Assembly: GCA_032249395.1 (NCBI GenBank)
Contig: JAVVFY010000002.1
Coordinates: forward strand, 4,239-68,238
Direction of reading: 5' to 3'
From: Candidatus Aenigmatarchaeota archaeon
GTDB taxonomy: Archaea > Aenigmatarchaeota > Aenigmatarchaeia > CG10238-14 > SpSt-28
DNA: 64,000 nucleotides
In this document: positions 21,119 through 50,078 of the stretch, piece by piece
How the letters are laid out: the number at the start of each line of letters is the position of its first letter
Position numbering within the stretch: the stretch's first letter is position 1
The notes under the pieces: model-generated
Told to the model about the DNA's origin: nothing
Seen by the model: only the letters and a program-made list of their open reading frames with translations
Databases searched by the model: none
Program-made: the position numbers and the translations under genes

Positions 21119-21167
21119 GATAACCTTGATAAAATGTTTCTCAACACAATCGCTTATAATAATAAAG

Positions 21168-21239
21168 TGGACCGGCCGGGATTCGAACCCGGAGCCTCCG
21201 CTTTGCAAGAGCGGCGATCTACCATTGATCTACCGGCCC
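21168..21239 (-). tRNA. tRNA-Ala (anticodon TGC)
   Basis: Reverse complement folds with acceptor GGGCCGG/CCGGTCC, including the G3:U70 Ala identity pair. Anticodon loop is CUUGCAA; T-arm CCGGG-TTCGAAT-CCCGG. Confidence 0.9.
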
Positions 21240-39654: not shown

Positions 39655-42255
39655 TTAAACCAATGCTGCAGTTCCTCCGGAATGCCATGATACTCTCGGT
39701 CTTATAACAACTGTGAAAACTTTCTCTAAGTTATCATCTAAAATCAGAGCTGCACCAGGCCATCTTGGTAGAGAATTCAAGTAAGCTTCTAATTCTTCCT
39801 GCATATAGGTTTGCATAACGGCATGAAGTGCTTGAATATCATCTCTGGATGTAAGTCTAAAGGAAATTACAATATCTGTTTGACTTAAAATCTCCTGATG
39901 TATTTTATTAGGCATTTGTGTTATAACTACTAAACCTACTCCAGGTTCTCTACCTTGTTTTGCAATTATTTTTATTGGTTCACTACTAGCAACTTCTTTA
40001 TCGCTTGGTATAAAGTTATGAGCCTCTTCTAAAATCAACCAAACTATTGGAAATGTGAATTTCGGTTTTTCTCCGGTTATTTTAAACTTTTCTTCTTCTT
40101 TTCTGGCTAAAACTCTTAATCTATAAATTTCTCTTGCTATTAATGCTACTAACAAATTTCTCAATTCTTCTGATCTCATTCTGGAAACATCTATAACAGT
40201 TATCTTTCCTGGCTCGGCTATTTCTTCTATTTTTGTTCCTTCCTTCACAATAAGTTTCCACTCGTTAGCAACAGATAACAAACTTACCAAAGCGTCTCTA
40301 ACTTCTTTTTTCGTTTCTTCATCTTTTCTAATTTCTTCAATCAAGTCAGTCAAATCAAATTTCTCTTTTTCTCTTTGAAGTTTTGTAAAATTTTTTTCAA
40401 GAGCAACTCCTTCTTCACTTAATCTATCCAACCTGAAAGCCAATAATATTTCTTCTGGAGTTAATTCACTTAAACTCAAAGCAATAGTTCCATCAACTGG
40501 AACTCCAGCATTTTTATAGCTCTCTAGCTGACCAATAGGAACTAAAACTTTTAGATTTGTTAAACCTTTCGGCTCCAATTGCCATTCCTTCAATAAATTC
40601 TTTTGTTGTTCATTAGGATATTTCATACTCCAGTAAATTCCAACTGGATCGACAACAATAAAAGACATTTTGTTTCTGTATTCATCTGGCAAAAAAGAAA
40701 ATTCTTCAAGAATTGCTCCTGCAGAGTATGAATTGTGTAAAATTACACCATTACCAACAAAATTGTGCTCATCGTTTACGGTAATGTCAAATACTTTTGT
40801 TCTTTCATTAATTGTAGTCTTCTCAACAACTTTTACCCAAACGATGTCTGGAGAGGAAATTTTAAGTAGATATTCATCATTAAAATATTCTCCGATTTTT
40901 CTGATTGTCGATTTCAAAGGATTATACTTGTATTTTGTAGAAACACCTTTCCAATTCTTATATCCCAGAGCTTTACCTATCTCTTTTTTCGAGTATTTTT
41001 CTTTTATGTATTTCCATATTGATTTTGGCAAATAATCGAAATTTGAATGATATTTTCTATTGTTGGCTAAAATCTCACTTATTAGTTTCTCTTTTCCTGG
41101 AAAACCTATATGAGTTATGAACTTTTTAATAGATTCTTTATCTGTAACAAAAAGAGTATAGTAAGTTTCTCCTTTAACCTTTTTCTCTCTTATGTATGAA
41201 AATATACCAAATCTGAGAAGCAAATAGAAAACTCCTTCTACCATTTTTCTGGATTTAGAAGCATACTCCAAAACATAAACTTGTTTACCTCTACTTTTTT
41301 TCTTGTATAGCGAGCCATCTCCTATAAACAAACATCGAAGGAAAAGGGCAATTTTTTTGTTAGAAAGAGAAAAGATAAACGAAGGTATAAACTTTTCTCC
41401 AGCTTTTTTGTTTTTTAATCCAAGCGATTCTAACCAGTTTAGCAGACTATTTCTCTCAAATATTAATCTAGATCCTTTAGAAAATTTACCATTTGGTAAT
41501 CGTCTAACATTATTCTCTTTAAGTTTTAGTTTAGTACCAACAACACGATATGTCGATGGATTACTCTTCATTCTCACTACTTTGAGACTTTTGTCAAACT
41601 TTTTCACACATTCTATAAAATCGTTAACAACTTCTTTGCTAGAATTTGTAAACCACACAAATGTTTTCCCTATGGTTCCTTCTGATAATATGTATCCTAA
41701 CAATTTTATCTTTTCATCTTCGATGTTATCAGTTCCTTCTACCGGAAAATAAGATGCAACAGCTATAACATCACCTTCTTTAATATCTTCAGCTCTTTTC
41801 CAACCAAAAGGAGTTAAGATCGGGTGTTCTTTTGTGACTTTTATCTCTATTCCATTCCAAAGTTTCATTTTTATTATGCTATCTACTTCTCTCTCAAAAA
41901 AATCGATAGCTTTAGAGGGCTTTATTTTAAAGTTGTCTTGATTTAGTGAAAGCACTCTAGAAATTTCTCTTTTCTTAACTAATTCCTCGATAGGCAAAAG
42001 TCTTCCATCTCCAAGTTGCACTAGAGTATCTCCAGTTACACACTTTCCGCTACCCCTTTTTCCACAAATCAAAATAACGTGAATTTTCAAGAAATCTAGA
42101 TAAACTTTTGTTGTTAAATGAGCATCTTCTCCTTTTCCAACAATGTGTTTACCAATATAACCAGCACCTATATTTCCAAACTTCTCCAAATCTTTTCTTT
42201 CTCTACCAACAACAGTTGGATAAGCTTTAACAATATCCTCATAAAATTCTTCCAT
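39655..42255 (-). CDS. HerA-like (DUF87) P-loop ATPase containing a 437-aa LAGLIDADG intein in the Walker A motif
   Basis: Extein GKRGSGK | SYSAGAILEE restores a GxxGSGKS P-loop. Walker B is LILEEAHNFIP, as in HerA/FtsK-like ATPases. Intein runs CVTGDTLV...VILHN with LAGLIDADG-like blocks (LGYILSEGTIG, FLRCLFIGDGS). Confidence 0.6.
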   Translation of the reverse strand: MEEFYEDIVKAYPTVVGRERKDLEKFGNIGAGYIGKHIVGKGEDAHLTTKVYLDFLKIHVILICGKRGSGKCVTGDTLVQLGDGRLLPIEELVKKREISRVLSLNQDNFKIKPSKAIDFFEREVDSIIKMKLWNGIEIKVTKEHPILTPFGWKRAEDIKEGDVIAVASYFPVEGTDNIEDEKIKLLGYILSEGTIGKTFVWFTNSSKEVVNDFIECVKKFDKSLKVVRMKSNPSTYRVVGTKLKLKENNVRRLPNGKFSKGSRLIFERNSLLNWLESLGLKNKKAGEKFIPSFIFSLSNKKIALFLRCLFIGDGSLYKKKSRGKQVYVLEYASKSRKMVEGVFYLLLRFGIFSYIREKKVKGETYYTLFVTDKESIKKFITHIGFPGKEKLISEILANNRKYHSNFDYLPKSIWKYIKEKYSKKEIGKALGYKNWKGVSTKYKYNPLKSTIRKIGEYFNDEYLLKISSPDIVWVKVVEKTTINERTKVFDITVNDEHNFVGNGVILHNSYSAGAILEEFSFLPDEYRNKMSFIVVDPVGIYWSMKYPNEQQKNLLKEWQLEPKGLTNLKVLVPIGQLESYKNAGVPVDGTIALSLSELTPEEILLAFRLDRLSEEGVALEKNFTKLQREKEKFDLTDLIEEIRKDEETKKEVRDALVSLLSVANEWKLIVKEGTKIEEIAEPGKITVIDVSRMRSEELRNLLVALIAREIYRLRVLARKEEEKFKITGEKPKFTFPIVWLILEEAHNFIPSDKEVASSEPIKIIAKQGREPGVGLVVITQMPNKIHQEILSQTDIVISFRLTSRDDIQALHAVMQTYMQEELEAYLNSLPRWPGAALILDDNLEKVFTVVIRPRVSWHSGGTAALV
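40732..42042 (-). mobile_element. intein with LAGLIDADG homing-endonuclease domain inside the HerA-like ATPase gene
   Basis: Canonical Cys1 ... HN / Ser+1 boundaries, read from the translation. Confidence 0.7.
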
Positions 42256-42287
42256 AAAAATTATTTCTCTGATAAATTATTATTGAT

Positions 42288-42374
42288 GGGGCCGTAGTCT
42301 AGCTTGGTCTAGGACGCCACCTTGGGGAATTATACAAAATGGTGGTAACCCGAGTTCAAATCTCGGCGGCCCCA
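42288..42374 (+). tRNA. tRNA-Pro (anticodon GGG) with a 12-nt intron (42328-42339)
   Basis: Acceptor GGGGCCG/CGGCCCC. Anticodon stem CCACC/GGTGG encloses 19 nt, read as UUGGGG + intron AATTATACAAAA + U. T-arm CCGAG-TTCAAAT-CTCGG. Confidence 0.7.
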
Positions 42375-42412
42375 AAATTGTTTTTTAATTATTCGAAACT
42401 ATTAGTATTGAT

Positions 42413-43417
42413 ATGAAAATTGCTTTCTATGAGGTAAGAGAAGACGAAAAGGAGTATTTTAAAGATAAGTTGAAAAATTTTGAGCTATTATTCTTTTCCG
42501 ATCCTATTAAAGAAGATAATGTTGTTTATGATGCTGATATCATATCTATTTTCGTAGATTCCAAAATAAACAAGAATTTATTAGATAAACTTAAGAACAC
42601 CAAACTCATTTGCACGAGATCTACAGGTTATGATCACATAGACTTAGAAGAGTGTAAAAAAAGAGGAATAGTTGTATCAAATGTTCCCAGCTATGGTATT
42701 GAAACTGTTGCCGAACACACATTTGCTCTCATCTTGGCTGCGTCTAGAAGGCTAATCGAAAGTTTTGAAAGAACTAGAAAAGGAGAATTCTCAAACAAAA
42801 ATTTGACTGGGTTTGAACTAAGGGGAAAAACAATTGGAATAATAGGAGCTGGGAAAATAGGAAGGAGGGTTGCGGAAATAGCAAAAGCTTTTGGAATGAG
42901 AGTTTTAGCATATGATATTTTCCAGAACATAGATGAGGCAAAAAGAATTGGATATGAGTATGTTCCGCTAGATACTTTATTGAAAGAATCAGACATAATA
43001 ACACTTCATGCCAATTTAACAAAAGAAAATTATCACATGATAAACAAAGACGCTTTTGAAAAAATGAAAGATGGTGTAGTAATAGTTAACACTGCTAGGG
43101 GAGCAATAATAGATACTGAGGCTCTTATAAAATATTTGAAATCCGGAAAAGTTTCTTATGCGGCATTAGATGTTTTAGAGGCCGAGCCAGAAATAAAAGA
43201 AGAAATGCAAGTTTTTGAAAAAGAACAAGATATTATTCAAATAAAAAAATTACTTTTCAATCACATTCTATTCGAAATGGAAGACAGATTAGAGAGAGTA
43301 ATAATAACTCCGCATAATGCTTTCAACAGCAAAGAAGCGCTTGAAGAAATAAAGAGAACGACAGTTGATAATATCATCTCATTCATAAATGGCAAACCCA
43401 TTAATGTTGTGGTGTGA
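42413..43417 (+). CDS. D-isomer-specific 2-hydroxyacid dehydrogenase family (e.g. glyoxylate/hydroxypyruvate reductase or PGDH-like)
   Basis: NAD-binding GKTIGIIGAGKIGRRVA, with catalytic R/E/H regions typical of the family. Confidence 0.75.
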   Translation: MKIAFYEVREDEKEYFKDKLKNFELLFFSDPIKEDNVVYDADIISIFVDSKINKNLLDKLKNTKLICTRSTGYDHIDLEECKKRGIVVSNVPSYGIETVAEHTFALILAASRRLIESFERTRKGEFSNKNLTGFELRGKTIGIIGAGKIGRRVAEIAKAFGMRVLAYDIFQNIDEAKRIGYEYVPLDTLLKESDIITLHANLTKENYHMINKDAFEKMKDGVVIVNTARGAIIDTEALIKYLKSGKVSYAALDVLEAEPEIKEEMQVFEKEQDIIQIKKLLFNHILFEMEDRLERVIITPHNAFNSKEALEEIKRTTVDNIISFINGKPINVVV

Positions 43418-43481
43418 TTCTTTAATAGATTAAATAGATTAAGCGGTCAAAAATGTTATTTTAAGCTGTTTAGATTATATT

Positions 43482-44054
43482 ATGGGCAACGAACTAGTAG
43501 AGAAAATTAGAAACATAGTTATAGATGTCTGCAAACAACTGGAAAGACTCGATGATTATAATTATCATATATCTGTTGTAGAAAATCTTGCTGTAGATCT
43601 TGGAAAAAGATTTGGTGCAGACGAAGAAATACTGAGGATTGCGGCTTTATTACATGAGATATGAAGAATTAAATTTGGTTCGGAGAGACATGAAGAAACA
43701 GGAGCAATAGAAGCTGAGAAGATTTTGAAAGAATTGAAGTTAGAAGAAAAGACGATAGAAAAGATTATAGAGTGTATAAAAGAGCATAGACATGAAAAAC
43801 CAACAATTCCTGTTTCTTTAGAAGCCAAAATCTTGAAGATTGCAGATGCATACTCACATTTCAAAAAACCTTTGGAGATTGCTTATATGGCAGTTAAGAT
43901 GGGTTTTGGATTAGAGGAAAGCTTATTGTGGATGAAGAATAAACTAGAAAAAGACTTGAAGTTTTTGAAGGAGATGAGCAACGAATTAGATATAAAAGAT
44001 GTTATAGAAGAATGTGAGAAGAAATATGAATGCTTCTCATGCTTATTAAGTTAG
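43482..44054 (+). pseudogene. HD-domain phosphohydrolase interrupted by an in-frame TGA (43662-43664)
   Basis: ORFs 43482-43664 and 43725-44054 are in the same frame. Read-through gives ...AALLHEI*RIKFGSERHEETG... The stop sits at the Gly position of the HD-family H-D-I-G-K motif. Confidence 0.5.
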
Positions 44055-44144
44055 TTTCTTATGAATTTCTATAGAGGGGACGTAGTCTAACTTGGCTAGG
44101 ACGCCGGCCTTGGGCGCCGGGAATCTGGGTTCAAATCCCAGCGT
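43939..44144. repeat. 206-bp direct repeat, copy A (3' end of HD gene + intergenic + tRNA-Pro-TGG)
   Basis: Identical to 46232-46437 as far as I can read. The copies diverge only in the last 5 nt of the tRNA acceptor arm. Confidence 0.85.
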
Positions 44145-44149
44145 CCCCA
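44076..44149 (+). tRNA. tRNA-Pro (anticodon TGG), copy A
   Basis: Acceptor GGGGACG/CGTCCCC. Anticodon stem CCGGC/GCCGG, loop CUUGGGC. T-arm CTGGG-TTCAAAT-CCCAG. Confidence 0.85.
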
Positions 44150-44196
44150 TTTCACAATTGATAAATATTTATAAAGTAAGGAAAACCGTAAAACAC

Positions 44197-44820
44197 ATGA
44201 AAGAAGATTCTATAAAAAAGTCGATGACAAAAGTTGTCCTTTATATTGTTCTAACAATAATTGTATTGGCTGTAGTTAAATGGGTTTTTAATGATGGTGT
44301 AAAAATTATAGCTAACTTGACACATTATAACGGGATTTATGGCCTAAAAGATTATGAGCTCTATACAAACTTGCTAGTAATTATTGTATTTGGTTGGATG
44401 ATAATTAACTCACTGGCTTCTAAATTTTAACTAATTTTTAATGAGAAATATGGTGAATATACGGCAGCTGCAATAAGAAGCCTTGTAAGAATTTTAGGAG
44501 TTGGTGGATTAATAGCTGGAATTGCAGGTTTAGTTGGTGGTGGAGTCGCCGCTGTTGCACTAGGTGGTTTTATAGGAATGGTAATAGGTTTTGCTACTCA
44601 ACAAGTTTTGGGTCAAGCAATAGCTGGTTTGTTTATAATGATTACAAGACCATTTAAAATTAATGACGTCGTAGATGTGGCTGGAGAAAGTGAAGTTGTG
44701 GTCAAGGATATAACATCATTGTTTACTGTAGTAGAGAGAAAATATGGATTGATAGATTTAGTACCAAGTTCTATGATTATTAGTCAAAAAATTGTATTCA
44801 GAAATACATCTGGTAAATAA
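44197..44820 (+). pseudogene. MscS-like small mechanosensitive channel interrupted by in-frame TAA (44428-44430), also C-terminally short
   Basis: TM1-TM2 ORF (MKEDSIKK...) then TAA, then the same frame continues ...GGFIGMVIGFATQQVLGQAIAGLFIMITRPFKINDVVDVAG (MscS TM3 and beta domain). Confidence 0.45.
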
Positions 44821-44834
44821 AAAATACAATGATA

Positions 44835-45623
44835 TTACTCGTATTTTTTAAAAACAACTTCTTTACCATTTTCTATTAATCTGGCCTCTATTTCCACCAT
44901 ATCATCTATACCAGAGGTTTTTATTTTACTTTTTAGCAACTCATCAACCTGAAATATCCCTGCAGGATTTGACATTACTATAACTATCTTTATTGGTTTT
45001 TTATTTCCCTCTAGAATCTCTACCTTTTCTATTGCTAAGGCAGATACAGAGTGTATGTCGATTTTCCCTAATTTGAATGGTATTCTTGCTCTACCCTTTT
45101 CCATATCTAAAGCATCTGCAATTTTAACTATTCCAGCTTCAATAGTAAATGGTTCTATATCTGCTTCATGAGAAAAAATAGCATGTAAAACTTCAAACTT
45201 TATTATATCTTTTTTTTCATCATCGTAAACTCCAGAAAGAAGCTCATCTAATATCTTATCTGCAATAACTATAGAAAAGAATGGATGATATTTCCTATGA
45301 ACAACATGACCAATATCATGCAACAATGAAGCTAAAGTTACGACGACTTCTGCGTCATCTATTCCCATATTATAGTTCTTAACAATGCTTGGAGTTATTC
45401 CCTTTTTTACCAATATTCTAAGTATTGTTAACGCATGATTGGCAACTATCTTCACATGGACTGGTCCATGATCATTATAACCAAGTCTATCTATTGCGTT
45501 TATATTAGAAGATTTAAGTAGAGTCAATAATCTTGTATTTTTGTTTATATTAGAAACTAGCTTAAGCAATTTTTCATTTCCATTATATGTAACCCCAAAA
45601 AAATTCCCAGATTTGTTTTCCAT
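44835..45623 (-). CDS. HD-domain protein (metal-dependent phosphohydrolase)
   Basis: HGPVHVKIVANHAL ... LLHDIGH ... H...D motifs. Confidence 0.6.
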   Translation of the reverse strand: MENKSGNFFGVTYNGNEKLLKLVSNINKNTRLLTLLKSSNINAIDRLGYNDHGPVHVKIVANHALTILRILVKKGITPSIVKNYNMGIDDAEVVVTLASLLHDIGHVVHRKYHPFFSIVIADKILDELLSGVYDDEKKDIIKFEVLHAIFSHEADIEPFTIEAGIVKIADALDMEKGRARIPFKLGKIDIHSVSALAIEKVEILEGNKKPIKIVIVMSNPAGIFQVDELLKSKIKTSGIDDMVEIEARLIENGKEVVFKKYE

Positions 45624-45683
45624 TTTCCATCACCTCTTTTAAGAGTTTATTTTAAGCTGAAAATTTAAATATTTTAAAAGTTC

Positions 45684-46229
45684 TTAGCTGCTGGAATAGT
45701 AATATATCCTTAATATGTTGTTGCTGAACAAAACATTACCTTCACTTATTAGAGAGACTGAAACATTGTTATTTGGATATAATAAAAGTGGATTACCTGC
45801 TAAGTCTCTGGTTATGTTAATGTGAAAAGTTCTAAACATAGGTTTACCAATGAACACTATTTGGTTGTTAAACTTGATCCGGATTGATGGAAGTTGTTGA
45901 GAATCCGACACTAAGATAGAAGAAAATCCTAATGCATAGAAATTATCGATCTCCCATCTAGAAAGCGGAACCTCAAATATATATGGATAGGACTTATACT
46001 TAACTTTAACTTCTGCTCTCACTACATGGTATGACGTTTTAAATAAAATTCCAAAACCCTCATTCTCTGCCTCAAGTCTAACAAAGTTAATTTCTTTTAA
46101 ATAGCTCAAATTCAAAGATATTTCCTCAAAGTATCCGCCACTTTCAATCTTATTTCTATAAATAACATTGCCGTTAAGTTTGACCACAAAATATCCAGGT
46201 CCGCCTACTTCATCTAAAATTAAATTCAA
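45684..46229 (-). CDS. N-terminally truncated paralog of the secreted protein encoded at 48060-49160
   Basis: GYFVVKLNGNVIYRNK...SYPYIFEVPLSRWEIDNFYALGFSS aligns with residues ~190-366 of the 366-aa protein. The ORF starts exactly at the edge of repeat copy B. Confidence 0.45.
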   Translation of the reverse strand: MNLILDEVGGPGYFVVKLNGNVIYRNKIESGGYFEEISLNLSYLKEINFVRLEAENEGFGILFKTSYHVVRAEVKVKYKSYPYIFEVPLSRWEIDNFYALGFSSILVSDSQQLPSIRIKFNNQIVFIGKPMFRTFHINITRDLAGNPLLLYPNNNVSVSLISEGNVLFSNNILRIYYYSSS

Positions 46230-46231
46230 TT

Positions 46232-46437
46232 ATAAACTAGAAAAAGACTTGAAGTTTTTGAAGGAGATGAGCAACGAATTAGATATAAAAGATGTTATAG
46301 AAGAATGTGAGAAGAAATATGAATGCTTCTCATGCTTATTAAGTTAGTTTCTTATGAATTTCTATAGAGGGGACGTAGTCTAACTTGGCTAGGACGCCGG
46401 CCTTGGGCGCCGGGAATCTGGGTTCAAATCCCAGCGT
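46232..46437. repeat. 206-bp direct repeat, copy B
   Basis: See copy A. Confidence 0.85.
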
Positions 46438-46442
46438 TTCCA
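46369..46442 (+). tRNA. tRNA-Pro (anticodon TGG), copy B with variant 3' acceptor strand (CGTTTCC; two G-U pairs)
   Basis: Identical to copy A through position 68. The 3' end differs, so possibly a relic copy. Confidence 0.55.
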
Positions 46443-46478
46443 CTTGAATTAATTAAGTTTAATATTCAGAATATCTAT

Positions 46479-47357
46479 ATGGATACGCTAGTAATTAGTG
46501 GTATAAACTCTATAAATCTTGCAAAAAGGATTGGAAGAAGAATAAAAGCGAAATTTATAAGTTTAGAATATAAGAAGTTTCCAGATGGTGAACTATACCT
46601 TAGATTGAAAAGCAAAATAAATAAAGGAAACGTAATTTTAGTGGAAACTCTTTACCCTCAAAACGATTCTATAATAGAGCTTCTTTTTTTGCTTGATCTA
46701 ATTAACGAGTTTAAACCAAAGAGTGTTACTCTTGTTTTACCATATTTCGCATACGCCAGACAACACAAAAGATACAGAAATTTTGAAGCAATTTCTGCAA
46801 AAACTCTTGCTAAACTAATCCAGAGCTTTGGAATCAATAAAATAATAGCAGTTAATCTACATTCCGAAGAAGTAATAAAATTTTTTGATATACCTGTTGT
46901 AAATTTAGCTGCAGAGAAATTAATAGCTGAATATTTCTTAAGTAAAAACCTAAAAAATCCTTTTGTTTTAATTCCAGACCAAGAGAGAGAAGAAATGGCA
47001 AAGAACGCAGCAGAAATTTTAAAATGCGAATATTCTTTTCTAAAAAAATATAGAAGCAGAGTTACTGGAGAAATAAAAACTGAAATTTTTAAAGATTTTG
47101 ATTTGAAAGGCAAAGATGTCATTATTCTAGATGACATAATAAGCAGTGGAAAAACAATGTTAAATGCAATTAAGATAGTTAAAAAGAAAAAAGCTAGGAA
47201 AATATTTGTTTCATGTGTTCATTACATCCCTTCGAGTATATACAAGAAATTTTTAAAACTCGGCGTTAAAGAAGTTGTAGCTACAAACACAATTCCTTCG
47301 GAAATAAGCAAAATAGATATCTCTCCATTAATTTCAAAAGAGATTGAAAATTTATAA
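46479..47357 (+). CDS. prs: ribose-phosphate pyrophosphokinase (PRPP synthetase)
   Basis: PRPP-binding loop VIILDDIISSGKTM, plus an N-terminal Prs domain. Confidence 0.8.
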   Translation: MDTLVISGINSINLAKRIGRRIKAKFISLEYKKFPDGELYLRLKSKINKGNVILVETLYPQNDSIIELLFLLDLINEFKPKSVTLVLPYFAYARQHKRYRNFEAISAKTLAKLIQSFGINKIIAVNLHSEEVIKFFDIPVVNLAAEKLIAEYFLSKNLKNPFVLIPDQEREEMAKNAAEILKCEYSFLKKYRSRVTGEIKTEIFKDFDLKGKDVIILDDIISSGKTMLNAIKIVKKKKARKIFVSCVHYIPSSIYKKFLKLGVKEVVATNTIPSEISKIDISPLISKEIENL

Positions 47358-47380
47358 AATAGAAGAATTAAATTAGAGTA

Positions 47381-48058
47381 ATGGAAATAGTTAAAGAAAT
47401 TATAGAAAATCCAACGAAAATTGCAAACTACATTGAACATACTAACGTTAAAGTTGAATCCACAAAGAAAGATATTGAAAATTTGTGTAAAGAGGTTTTA
47501 AAGTATAATTTTTATGGTGCTGTTGTTCTTCCTTACCATGTAAAGCTAGCAAGAAAAATTTTGAAGAATAAAGCTAAAGTTATAACTGTTATTGGATTTC
47601 CCTACGGTATACAAAGCACAAGAGCTAAGGTTGCCGAAGTAGAAGATGTTTTTGAATATGTAGATGAGTTTGATATGGTATTTAATAGAAACGCATTTCT
47701 CAACAAAGATTATAAATTAGTTGTAAAGGATATTAAATCTGTAGTAAATGCAGCAAAACCAAAAGTAGTAAAAGTAATAATAGAAACTCCATCTCTAACA
47801 AAAGAGCAAATAAAAATTGCTTCTAAGCTTGTGATTAGAGGTAATGCTCACTTTGTTAAAACTGCAGTAGGATATAGCGGAGCAGCTAAAGTCGAAGACG
47901 TTAAAATCATAAAAAGAGTAGTGGGTGACAAAATAAAAATTAAAGCGTCTGGGGGGATAAAGGATTTTAATCAGGCACTAGAAATGATAAAAGCTGGTGC
48001 CGATAGAATAGGAAGTTCTCACGGAGTTGATATTATAAAAACTTCACAAAAGATCTAA
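47381..48058 (+). CDS. deoC: deoxyribose-phosphate aldolase
   Basis: VKVIIETPSLT...AHFVKTAVGY (Schiff-base Lys)...KASGGIKD. Confidence 0.8.
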   Translation: MEIVKEIIENPTKIANYIEHTNVKVESTKKDIENLCKEVLKYNFYGAVVLPYHVKLARKILKNKAKVITVIGFPYGIQSTRAKVAEVEDVFEYVDEFDMVFNRNAFLNKDYKLVVKDIKSVVNAAKPKVVKVIIETPSLTKEQIKIASKLVIRGNAHFVKTAVGYSGAAKVEDVKIIKRVVGDKIKIKASGGIKDFNQALEMIKAGADRIGSSHGVDIIKTSQKI

Positions 48059-48059
48059 G

Positions 48060-49160
48060 TTAAGTGGAATATGAGTATATTTTAACTATATTGTTGCTAA
48101 AATAGATTTCTCCTTCTGTAAGCAAAGAAATTGAAACTTTGTTTGAAGGAGATAATAAAAGATTGTTACCCATTAAATCTTTAGTTATATTCAATCTAAA
48201 AGCAGTAATTGGAAGTTTTCCTATAAACACTTTTTGATTATTGACTTTGATTTCAACTGAGGGATAACCTTGTTGTACCAATGTAGAAGAAAACTCCAAA
48301 GCATAGAAATTATCTATTTCGCTTTGAGACAAAGGAACTTCAAAGGAAAAAGGCATAGATTTATACTTAACTATAACTCTAGCATCAAAAATATTGTAAG
48401 ATGTTTTAGATAAAACTCTGAATCCTTCATTTTTTACTTCAATATTTATAAAATTCATTTCTTTTATCTCGCTCACATTTATAGGTATCTCTTCAAATCC
48501 TTGAGTAGCTTTTTTCATAAATATAACATTTCCATTGAATTTGACTACTAAAAGACCGGAACCTTTAACATCTGCTATGGCTATTTTAATTTTAGCTTCC
48601 TCGATCTCCATTCTTTCTGGCTTTAAAATAAGCGTTGCCGACTTCGAGGAGAATAAGGACCTTTCAACTATAAAATCAGACTTACTATCTACTATTTTCT
48701 CATTTCCAAAATTAGAAACTTTAAAATCTTCTATAGAAAATGAGCGAGAGGTTAAAGTTAAAGTTGGTGCAACGTATACTTTAACATAAATTGCGTCTTC
48801 TCCACCTTTACCTCTAGCTATTATATAACCTGAATACGTACCATAACCAGTTGGAGAATTTAGAATTGCTTTTATTTCTTTTTCTCCTATAACATTAAAG
48901 TTGTTCTCGCTAAACGAGATTATTTGTGAAAGAGTTTCGTTAGCGATCAGATTTACGTTTGTCAGGTTTCCTATGACTTTAAACGTTATTGTTTTTTGAG
49001 AGTTTGGTAGCATTCTTATTGAAATGCTTCTTGGTTCCAAAGAAGGAGGCAATTCTTGAGGAGTCGCCCAAAAAATAAGCATAATTCCTATGAAGACTAA
49101 CGCACCTAATAAAATGAAGACAAACTCATCTATTATCATTTGTTTTGCCTGAGATTTCAT
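48060..49160 (-). CDS. secreted/membrane-anchored protein of unknown function (N-terminal TM; paralog of 45684-46229)
   Basis: N-terminal hydrophobic anchor FVFILLGALVFIGIMLIF. The C-terminal domain is shared with the truncated paralog. Confidence 0.4.
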   Translation of the reverse strand: MKSQAKQMIIDEFVFILLGALVFIGIMLIFWATPQELPPSLEPRSISIRMLPNSQKTITFKVIGNLTNVNLIANETLSQIISFSENNFNVIGEKEIKAILNSPTGYGTYSGYIIARGKGGEDAIYVKVYVAPTLTLTSRSFSIEDFKVSNFGNEKIVDSKSDFIVERSLFSSKSATLILKPERMEIEEAKIKIAIADVKGSGLLVVKFNGNVIFMKKATQGFEEIPINVSEIKEMNFINIEVKNEGFRVLSKTSYNIFDARVIVKYKSMPFSFEVPLSQSEIDNFYALEFSSTLVQQGYPSVEIKVNNQKVFIGKLPITAFRLNITKDLMGNNLLLSPSNKVSISLLTEGEIYFSNNIVKIYSYST

Positions 49161-49193
49161 AAATTATGTTGAAAATAAGAAATAAAAATGAAA

Positions 49194-49382
49194 TTAGCCA
49201 TTAATCTTCTTCAATCTAGTTATATAACCGGCAACAACGTTTCTAAGTTTTTTGGAAGGAATGTCTACATATTTTTTAACAATTTCCTTATTTTTCTCAA
49301 AATCTGTAGTAAACTCATCCTTATGTTCTCTATAGAGTTTCTCTCCAATGTTCTTTATCATTGTTGTTTTTATCCTTCCCAC
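49194..49382 (-). CDS. rps17e: 30S ribosomal protein S17e
   Basis: MGRIKTTMIKNIGEKLYREHKDEFTTDFEKNKE matches S17e. Confidence 0.8.
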   Translation of the reverse strand: MGRIKTTMIKNIGEKLYREHKDEFTTDFEKNKEIVKKYVDIPSKKLRNVVAGYITRLKKING

Positions 49383-49390
49383 TATATCAC

Positions 49391-49951
49391 CTATGGTTTC
49401 AATCTTTTTATTTCATAATATGTGACATCATTTTCCTTATCTACTACAGCCCAAACAAAAGTAGCCCTTATGTTATGAGCTAATCTTACTGCTCTTGACA
49501 TTTCTGGTAAAGAGAATGCTGCTTCTTCTGGAACAGCATGAACAATAAACTTAGTATGCTCAAAAGGCGCCTTAGGTCCTCTTTTTATCTTTACCCCTTT
49601 CTCATAAACTCTGAAATGGGCACCAAATTTATAGCCAGTTTTAACCAAATATCCTTTATTTCTTAAATCTGAGTAGACAACATACTGAGCATGGAACTGA
49701 TTTAATCTACTTTCTCCTACTTTCATCATCTCTCTCAAATCTAGCATTCTTTTTTTATTGTTTTCCGTTACATAAATTTTTAACTTTCCTTTCTCGAGCA
49801 AATAAGTAGCTTCTATTAAATCTAACTCCAATCTTTCTGGAGCTTCTAGCGGCATTGGTTTTCCATAGCCGTGCTCATAGTATAAATTCGCCGCTTCCTT
49901 ATCCCATATTATGACTCTTTCTTCTATCAATTCTCCTTCGAAAGCTTTCAT
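49391..49951 (-). CDS. endA: tRNA-splicing endonuclease EndA
   Basis: GYLVKTGYKFGAHFRVY...H...K catalytic triad region. Start moved to the internal Met (MKAFEG) because the longer ORF overlaps tRNA-Arg. Confidence 0.7.
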   Translation of the reverse strand: MKAFEGELIEERVIIWDKEAANLYYEHGYGKPMPLEAPERLELDLIEATYLLEKGKLKIYVTENNKKRMLDLREMMKVGESRLNQFHAQYVVYSDLRNKGYLVKTGYKFGAHFRVYEKGVKIKRGPKAPFEHTKFIVHAVPEEAAFSLPEMSRAVRLAHNIRATFVWAVVDKENDVTYYEIKRLKP

Positions 49952-49992
49952 AATAATATTTAGATCTTGCTTGTTATAGATTTTAACATAAT

Positions 49993-50078
49993 TGCCCCCG
50001 CCGGGATTTGAACCCGGGCCACCGGCTTTTCGCAGAAAACCGCAAGCCGGGGTTCTATCCAATCTAAACTACGGGGGC
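49993..50078 (-). tRNA. tRNA-Arg (anticodon GCG) with a 12-nt intron (50028-50039)
   Basis: Reverse complement folds with acceptor GCCCCCG/CGGGGGC. Anticodon stem CCGGC/GCCGG encloses 19 nt, read as UUGCGG + intron + A. T-arm CCGGG-TTCAAAT-CCCGG. Confidence 0.7.

Follow-up and report, generated by a model that had tools for sequence, protein, structure and literature searches.

A 206-bp direct repeat bearing tRNA-Pro(UGG) as the probable seam between two diverged versions of one locus in an Aenigmatarchaeota chromosome

How does a chromosome come to carry the same tRNA gene, together with the sequence upstream of it, on both sides of a block of broken genes? The question is raised by a stretch of 64,000 nucleotides (nt) from a hot-spring Candidatus Aenigmatarchaeota archaeon (GenBank assembly GCA_032249395.1, contig JAVVFY010000002.1, positions 4,239 to 68,238 of the forward strand; hereafter the window, with positions counted from its first letter). 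In this window a perfect 206-bp direct repeat, which contains the end of an HD-domain gene (HD1) and most of a gene for tRNA-Pro with anticodon UGG, brackets a segment of disrupted and truncated genes. An earlier note on this DNA had read the arrangement as the usual signature of a tRNA-targeted integrative element, with a segmental duplication or an insertion by homologous recombination as an equally possible alternative. We conclude that the repeat is probably the seam that joins, head to tail, two diverged versions of one locus. The 206 bp are the module of HD1 3' end and tRNA that is common to both units.

A repeat search and pairwise alignment showed that positions 43939-44144 and 46232-46437 are 100% identical over 206 bp, exactly as the earlier note had reported, with a start-to-start distance of 2293 bp. 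A repeat of this length and perfection is far beyond chance in a genome with 31% guanine plus cytosine (GC). It consists of the last 137 nt of the HD1 reading frame plus spacer, followed by the 5' 69 nt of tRNA-Pro(UGG) (tRNA positions 1-68), and homology extends beyond the 206 bp to 44149 and 46442 with two mismatches. The repeat and its tRNA genes are as follows.

43939-44149, + strand: repeat copy A, HD1 3' part and spacer plus tRNA-Pro(UGG); perfect to 44144, with CC at 44145-44146
46232-46442, + strand: repeat copy B, HD1 3' fragment plus tRNA-Pro(UGG); perfect to 46437, with TT at 46438-46439
44076-44149, + strand: tRNA-Pro(UGG) copy A; found by ARAGORN, Rfam 64.9 bits, minimum free energy -35.1 kcal/mol, intact acceptor stem with G3:C70 and G4:C69
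46369-46442, + strand: tRNA-Pro(UGG) copy B; found by ARAGORN, Rfam 60.2 bits, minimum free energy -29.4 kcal/mol, with C69U and C70U

Ten related loci were gathered by homologue searches with HD1 and prs, followed by gene-context look-ups. A genome scan with the prs protein placed the window in Candidatus Aenigmatarchaeota (DPANN), the nearest contig of a metagenome-assembled genome being L021 at 92%. The relatives carry two versions of the locus, here called type I and type II. The type I contig L046 has a 2-hydroxyacid dehydrogenase gene (2-Hacid_dh), HD1 (intact, 190 amino acids, aa), tRNA-Pro, a gene for an MscS-like channel (intact, 207 aa), a second HD-domain gene (HD2) and the gene of a membrane-anchored or secreted protein (Sec, 371 aa). 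L044 has HD1, tRNA-Pro, HD2, Sec, S17e and EndA, all intact, and L037 and L043 are reduced type I forms. The type II contig L047 has HerA, tRNA-Pro(GGG), 2-Hacid_dh, tRNA-Pro(UGG), prs, deoC, Sec, S17e and EndA; L021 and L034 have the same order plus an extra PNP-like gene. HD1 survives in the type II relatives as a 20-45-nt vestige of its 3' end upstream of the tRNA. Five cassette states are therefore seen between tRNA-Pro(UGG) and Sec: nothing (L043), HD2 (L044 and L037), MscS-HD2 (L046), prs-deoC (L047) and PNP-prs-deoC (L021). Both units in tandem were absent from at least ten related loci. A metagenome scan with the 69-nt tRNA sequence returned a single contig, L034, which belongs to the same species as L021, and a contig look-up with the 109-aa open reading frame (ORF) of the HD1 C-terminus returned no new arrangement.

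Two further observations concern this slot. Only L021 and L034 have, between prs and tRNA-Pro(UGG), the PNP_UDP_1-like gene of about 900 bp (L021 2598-3496); in L021 an AT-rich and imperfect direct repeat, about 13 nt long (TTATTTAAAGTTT and TTAATTAAATTT), flanks this gene, which is another insertion or deletion in the slot. Contigs from other populations (L035, L036, L039 and L040) end within or just after tRNA-Pro(UGG), so that in those samples as well the cargo following this tRNA seems to be polymorphic.

The window follows the type I unit as far as the middle of its Sec gene (Sec_I), crosses a junction at 46231/46232, and continues with the last 137 nt of HD1, tRNA-Pro, and the type II flank and cargo. 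The features of the type I part are listed below.

42413-43417, + strand: 2-hydroxyacid dehydrogenase, type I allele (Pfam 2-Hacid_dh)
43482-44054, + strand: HD1 pseudogene, HD-domain phosphohydrolase (Pfam HD, 2.1e-14), with TGA at 43662-43664
44197-44820, + strand: MscS-like channel pseudogene (Pfam MS_channel_2nd), with TAA at 44428-44430
44835-45623, - strand: HD2, intact 262-aa HD-domain protein (Pfam HD)
45684-46231, - strand: Sec_I', 5'-truncated C-terminal half of the type I membrane-anchored/secreted protein, 181 codons
46231/46232, no strand: illegitimate junction between the middle of Sec_I and the 3' part of HD1, no microhomology

Comparison of the three sequences that meet at this junction defined it to the nucleotide. 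The window reads TTCAATT/ATAAACT, Sec of L046 reads TTCAATT/TAGCATC and HD1 reads ATGAAGA/ATAAACT. L046 is collinear with window positions 43062-46231 at 95.5% identity, and the collinearity stops exactly at 46231, where L046 continues into the N-terminal half of Sec. The coincidence of the Sec truncation point with the repeat edge, already remarked on in the earlier note, is thus exact. Since the junction lacks microhomology and could not be produced by switching between strains inside the repeat, a single illegitimate join must have taken place. At least ten independent assemblies (JGI, ENA and Logan) contain this junction. A 59-aa chimeric ORF (46168-46347, + strand) spans it, reading through the antisense of the shortened Sec copy and on into the duplicated 3' end of HD1, and is probably meaningless.

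We then compared the genes of the bracketed segment and its left flank with their counterparts in the relatives. The 2-hydroxyacid dehydrogenase gene showed nucleotide identities of 97% to L046 and 91% to L035, and only 77-80% to the type II contigs L021 and L047. HD1 differs from L046 by GGA->TGA (G61*) and by GAT->GAG, which turns the HD motif into HE. In eleven relatives HD1 is intact, with 190 aa and the sequence LLHDIGRIKFGP, where the window has LLHEI*RIKFGS. The gene has also lost its catalytic Asp and carries a Pro->Ser change beside the stop, and the stop is shared by all assemblies of the window's population. The left HD gene had been recognised in the earlier note, which overlooked that it is a pseudogene. 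In the MscS-like gene the in-frame TAA noted before was found again; L046, whose 207-aa protein is intact and 89% identical, reads TAC (Tyr78) at this codon (Y78*). By comparison with intact relatives, both premature stops appear to be single recent point mutations. Recoding of TGA or TAA (for example TGA as Gly) was considered as another explanation and rejected: the other genes of the window are intact under the standard code, and HD1 has the lost Asp and the Pro->Ser change near its stop. In most other assemblies (L007-L015) the downstream MscS fragment is called as 96 aa versus 80 aa (44578 region) and the Sec fragment as 167 versus 181 aa; these contigs match the window without gaps and with only one or two mismatches, and the ORF-length differences could reflect a mismatch or start-codon calling.

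The HD-domain gene reported inside the segment is HD2, which is intact and occupies the same position in L046, L044 and L037. Its nucleotide identity is 99.2% to L046, with 93-96% for the flanking MscS and Sec_I', and only 76% to L044, otherwise a close type I relative; this unevenness suggests either that HD2 is under strong constraint or that it was exchanged separately and recently. Sec_I' aligns to residues 191-366 of the resident 366-aa protein (48060-49160) with about 56-57% aa identity. It is 94.5% identical in aa to the C-terminal half of L044 Sec and 95.6% identical in nucleotides to L046, while the resident gene, Sec_II, is 91.5% identical to the Sec of L021. The fragment had been labelled a paralog of the resident gene, a label that we replace: with 94.5% identity to type I against 57% to the resident, it is an ortholog from the other version of the locus. 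A homologue search with the truncated Sec itself gave zero matches despite the 94%-identical proteins of L044 and L046, which is an index miss. Taken together, the comparisons indicate that the bracketed cargo is the ordinary type I neighbourhood of tRNA-Pro(UGG), apparently in decay, and not foreign DNA.

These identities also bear on the possibility of an old segmental duplication within the genome, in which an HD1-tRNA-cargo-Sec unit diverged into paralogs and the tRNA module alone was kept identical. Such a history would account for the head-to-tail HD1'-tRNA-cargo-Sec units and for the 56% identity between the Sec copies. As in a tandem duplication, the HD1'-tRNA-cargo-Sec topology occurs twice with a single novel junction at 46231/46232. 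The two units do not, however, go back to a common parent: their cargoes are MscS-HD2 and prs-deoC, and their Sec halves share 57% identity with each other, against 92-95% with a separate lineage in each case. Each unit has its own single-copy relative, at 94-99% identity, and no relative has both; therefore the divergence arose between lineages and not between paralogs in one genome. The premature stops, as single recent point mutations, also speak against an old event, and we regard this history as highly improbable. What remains of the alternative proposed in the earlier note is a modified form, in which duplication or recombination brought together two diverged locus versions and not copies of one.

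The integrative element that the earlier note had put first would be a tRNA-targeted island with a site-specific integrase, since degraded, of which the repeats are attL and attR. Direct repeats bearing a tRNA do bracket a segment of pseudogenes, and the slot downstream of the tRNA does vary among the relatives. The geometry, on the other hand, is the opposite of that of an att site, as the repeat comprises the 5' part of the tRNA and 137 nt upstream of it and diverges at the tRNA 3' end. Moreover, copy B at its left end interrupts a gene at a point unrelated in sequence to the tRNA, and both tRNAs are full length, whereas one complete tRNA is expected. ORFs and Pfam domains within the segment comprised only MscS, HD and the Sec fragment, in agreement with the earlier statement that no integrase lies inside, and precomputed Pfam assignments over about 10 kb on each side included no integrase, transposase or recombinase; neither the segment nor these flanks contain an excisionase, replication or viral gene. 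The composition is native, with a segment GC of 0.29-0.35 equal to that of the flanks, and the same cargo stands intact and native beside the tRNA in L046, L044 and L037. Scans of IMG/VR viral contigs with the tRNA 3' half and with HD2 gave zero matches, and no viral or plasmid relative was found. On this evidence an integrative element is scarcely credible.

How far each version of the locus extends was mapped by sliding-window identities and three-way informative sites. The resulting mosaic, with the genes at its switch points, reads as follows.

up to about 42300: L047-like (type II); HerA and upstream, with the switch in tRNA-Pro(GGG)
about 42300-46231: type I; 2-Hacid_dh to truncated Sec_I
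46438 to about 49075: L047-like (type II); prs, deoC and most of Sec_II
about 49075-49995: L044-like (type I); Sec 5' end, S17e and EndA
beyond about 49995: L047-like (type II), from tRNA-Arg
46443-49075, no strand: type II block; tRNA 3' flank, prs (46479-47357, +), deoC (47381-48058, +) and most of Sec_II (48060-49160, -)
49075-49995, - strand: second type I patch; Sec 5' end, S17e (49194-49382) and the tRNA-splicing endonuclease gene EndA (49391-49951)
42288-42374, + strand: tRNA-Pro(GGG) with a short anticodon-loop intron; Rfam 53.3 bits, missed by ARAGORN; left switch point
49993-50078, - strand: intron-containing tRNA-Arg(GCG); Rfam 54.5 bits, ARAGORN '???'; right switch point to type II-like sequence

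L047 is collinear with window positions 46331-49390, from 45 nt upstream of tRNA copy B, at 94.7% overall and 96-99% per 200-nt window, and nearly every informative site as far as about 49050 is of the L047 type. The second type I patch shows 94-99% identity to L044 versus 67-84% to L047, with sharp switches at about 49050-49100 and 49990-50000. On the left, informative sites turn from L047-like to L035- and L046-like at about 42250-42350. The closest relative thus changes within 50-100 nt at tRNA-Pro(GGG), at tRNA-Pro(UGG), at the Sec 5' end and at tRNA-Arg. Three of these four homologous switch points are tRNA genes, the most conserved sequences available as recombination anchors.

Some features of the switch points and their surroundings are recorded here in their own right. 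The homologous tRNA-Pro(GGG) of the relatives is miscalled by ARAGORN as tRNA-Gly(GCC). The intron-containing tRNA-Arg(GCG) directly adjoins EndA (49391-49951), the gene for the tRNA-splicing endonuclease. The HerA/DUF87-like ATPase gene (39655-42255, - strand) carries a LAGLIDADG intein at about 40725-42040, which is present in L047 and L035 and not in L021 or L034, and the RFC gene beside it also bears an intein.

A tandem arrangement of this kind calls for scrutiny of the assembly. Exact-protein look-ups yielded contigs from more than 10 samples and three assembly pipelines that are 99.9-100% identical to the window. Contigs L007/L016 and L019 run from the left flank through the repeat into the middle segment, and L001 and L008 run from the middle segment through the repeat into the right flank. 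MEGAHIT contigs break inside the repeat, and JGI contigs cross it. No contig of this population joins the left flank to the right flank (prs) through a single repeat. In 6 independent assemblies copy B has the TT variant, and this variant and the Sec_I'/HD1' junction recur in every assembly relevant to them. The earlier note had asked whether both junctions are supported; both of them, like both tRNA 3' ends, recur across at least ten independent assemblies, with contigs crossing each copy. The contig L011 (Ga0079996_117772, 2392 bp) holds the 2293-bp unit in circularly permuted form, its ends overlapping by 99 nt, which fits an assembly-graph loop, a circle or a tandem array.

We considered on this basis whether the arrangement is an artefact: co-occurring strains of type I and type II might have been assembled into a chimera through their common tRNA, or the chromosome might have one repeat only, with a 2.3-kb circle existing free beside it. 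Type I and type II lineages do occur in sister samples (L045, L046 and L047, from the same JGI project series), and the breaks of MEGAHIT contigs in the repeat and the circular permutation of L011 are what an artefact could leave behind. The junction between Sec_I' and HD1' could not, however, arise from a strain switch in a shared repeat, yet it is found in at least ten assemblies. The block also has private mutations (HD1 G61*, MscS Y78* and G44007) and is therefore not simply the L046 strain, and five contigs cross a whole repeat as the window predicts, with none running from left flank through repeat to right flank. We consider an artefact very unlikely.

Comparison of the repeat copies with the relatives provided information on the history of the seam. 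A private G at 44007 is present in both copies, at corresponding positions, and absent from all relatives, and both copies have the type II anticodon-stem pair C..G, where type I relatives and the outgroup L043 have G..C. Because these states are common to both, the copies have apparently been homogenised by gene conversion.

The seam most likely formed by one illegitimate join, which created the Sec_I'/HD1' junction, together with homologous exchanges anchored on tRNA genes, and either of two routes may have led to it. In the first (route a), a type I chromosome would have undergone a tandem duplication of 2293 bp, reaching from the HD1 3' part to mid-Sec, and the cargo of the second unit would then have been replaced by type II DNA through homologous recombination anchored on the tRNA and Sec. 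In the second (route b), homologous replacement would have come first, giving HD1-tRNA-prs, and a circularised 2.3-kb type I fragment would then have integrated in Campbell fashion through the HD1/tRNA homology. In both cases exchanges with DNA of the other lineage, anchored on conserved tRNA genes and Sec, would have swapped the cargo of one unit. Afterwards the repeat copies would have evolved in concert while the redundant type I genes (HD1, MscS and the truncated Sec) decayed, and the CC->TT change of copy B would have arisen 3 nt from the homology edge, where conversion is least likely to reach.

A plain Campbell-type insertion deserves separate weighing. An HD1-tRNA-Pro-prs ancestor would have taken up a circularised 2.3-kb fragment (HD1', tRNA, MscS, HD2 and Sec_I') by a single crossover in the 206-bp homology. 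This proposal is a sub-variant of the head-to-tail joining of two locus versions, set apart from it solely by the order of events and by the prediction that an empty site once existed. A 2293-bp unit with one repeat copy is indeed a circle opened within the repeat, the lack of microhomology at the junction is expected of circularisation by end joining, and the middle-repeat-middle connectivity of L011 and the 100% identity of the repeats are in accordance with it. The L011 connectivity is, however, equally expected from an assembly-graph loop. The empty HD1-tRNA-prs site that the earlier note had proposed to look for was absent from the relatives and from the window's population; L047 shows 2-Hacid_dh-tRNA-Pro-prs instead, with HD1 of type II reduced to its vestige. 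We therefore hold this order of events to be possible but rather doubtful.

Several points weigh against the joining of two locus versions that we favour. Neither possible intermediate, a type I duplication in tandem or HD1-tRNA-prs, turned up among the relatives examined. To explain the type II anticodon-stem pair of copy A, one must assume a further step of gene conversion or an unsampled type I donor. The linear order rests on the window and on paired-end-resolved contigs that each cross one repeat only, and the permutation of L011 leaves some room for a free circle or tandem array. Finally, the type I relatives are contigs of 3.7-4.4 kb only and every relative is itself a mosaic, so that either lineage may be the backbone, or the donor, and the events may have come in either order.

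The two mismatches at the edge of the repeat fall in the acceptor stem of the tRNA. The earlier note rightly had the tRNA copies differing at the 3' end only, and placed the difference in the last 5 nt, of which we find two to differ, by adjacent C->T changes. The 3' ends read CGTCCCCA in copy A and CGTTTCCA in copy B, and the 3' flank of copy A is identical to that of L046. In L047 the tRNA ends in ...GCGTCCCCA, followed by the flank CTTGAATTAATTAAG..., which is the same as the flank of copy B in the window; with the tRNA end written ...CCCAGCGTCCCCA, the flank CTTGAATTAATTAAGTTTAATATTCA... leads on to prs. As the L047 tRNA has equal length and the same flank, copy B differs by two substitutions and not by a deletion. 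A deletion of 4-5 nt at the 3' end of copy B, an idea derived from L021, was dropped on these grounds, the change being CC->TT. An attR-like degenerate remnant of a tRNA 3' end upstream of prs in L021 was likewise rejected; the similarity is only about 64% in AT-rich DNA, and the L047 tRNA lies directly upstream of prs. By these comparisons, copy B is the tRNA at the type II position, bearing two adjacent C->T changes.

The substitutions C69U and C70U convert two pairs of the stem to G4•U69 and G3•U70 with A73 retained, C69 and C70 being the state in copy A and in the relatives. The cloverleaf of copy B is the same as that of copy A and 5.7 kcal/mol less stable. Copy B thereby has the identity set of alanyl-tRNA synthetase (AlaRS), namely G3•U70, A73, G1:C72 and G2:C71, and the window's own tRNA-Ala (21167-21239) also has G3•U70 and A73. 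Archaeal prolyl-tRNA synthetase (ProRS) recognises Watson-Crick pairs G1-G3:C70-C72 in the acceptor stem. In copy B, G3•U70 and G4•U69 stand in place of G:C pairs. The yeast tRNA-Pro(UGG) with C70U (SUF9 G3:U70) is charged with Ala by AlaRS, is not a substrate of ProRS and leads to the substitution of Ala for Pro at a level of about 6% (Hoffman et al. 2016, PMC5389508). Copy B shares with it C70U in a tRNA-Pro(UGG) and G3•U70 with A73; it differs in having C69U in addition and an archaeal host.

The simplest reading of the change in copy B would be decay of a redundant gene copy. At least 137 nt upstream of copy B are identical to those of copy A, and because of this identity the promoter of copy B is presumably the same. 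Copy B might then be an expressed tRNA with a proline anticodon and alanine identity, fixed in a wild DPANN population (at least ten metagenomes), that causes low-level Pro->Ala mistranslation and locks in the decaying 2.1-kb block; we consider this distinctly unlikely. If copy B were harmful or useless, a cell in which the repeats recombined would keep the mutated tRNA alone, and loss of the decaying block would be selected against. The persistence of the block in every sample may have this cause, as its loss by repeat recombination would leave only the copy B tRNA. In either case copy B is a natural C70U variant of tRNA-Pro(UGG) with the same change as the yeast mistranslator, and the question is testable in environmental tRNA or proteome data.

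Comparison with known systems shows which of them the locus resembles. With tRNA-targeted elements, such as the tyrosine-integrase islands of bacteria and the SSV-type and pNOB8-type elements of archaea, it shares a tRNA-containing direct repeat and a slot that varies among relatives. It differs from them in that the window has no integrase, the 206 bp comprise the 5' part of the tRNA and an upstream gene in place of an att core from the tRNA 3' part, an unrelated gene is joined at its middle to the second repeat, and cargo and composition are native. The locus is thus a counter-example to a common heuristic: tRNA-bearing repeats around pseudogenes are here likely to be a recombination scar and not a degraded integrative element.

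Replacement-type flexible genomic islands, a concept from marine bacterial and archaeal pangenomes, arise by homologous exchange at conserved flanks. Alternative cassettes (MscS-HD2 versus prs-deoC, with or without PNP) likewise stand here in one slot between tRNA-Pro and Sec, with sharp switches at the anchors. In contrast to such islands, both alternatives are present in tandem in one chromosome through an extra illegitimate junction, and one of them is decaying. The pattern reveals fine-scale mosaicism in uncultivated Aenigmatarchaeota, with patches of 1-4 kb and switch points on three tRNA genes, and implies that lineages with differences of 20-40% in some genes often exchange DNA by homologous recombination.

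Homology-facilitated illegitimate recombination and Campbell-type integration by a single crossover have been described for naturally transformable bacteria and are not known from DPANN archaea. The locus resembles their products in having one junction without homology, homologous boundaries elsewhere, and a direct repeat of the anchor on both sides of the acquired DNA. All in all, the locus agrees with the replacement of cassettes through homologous recombination at conserved anchors, together with a single illegitimate join; the processes are known ones, here met in a new case from an archaeal group that has been little studied.

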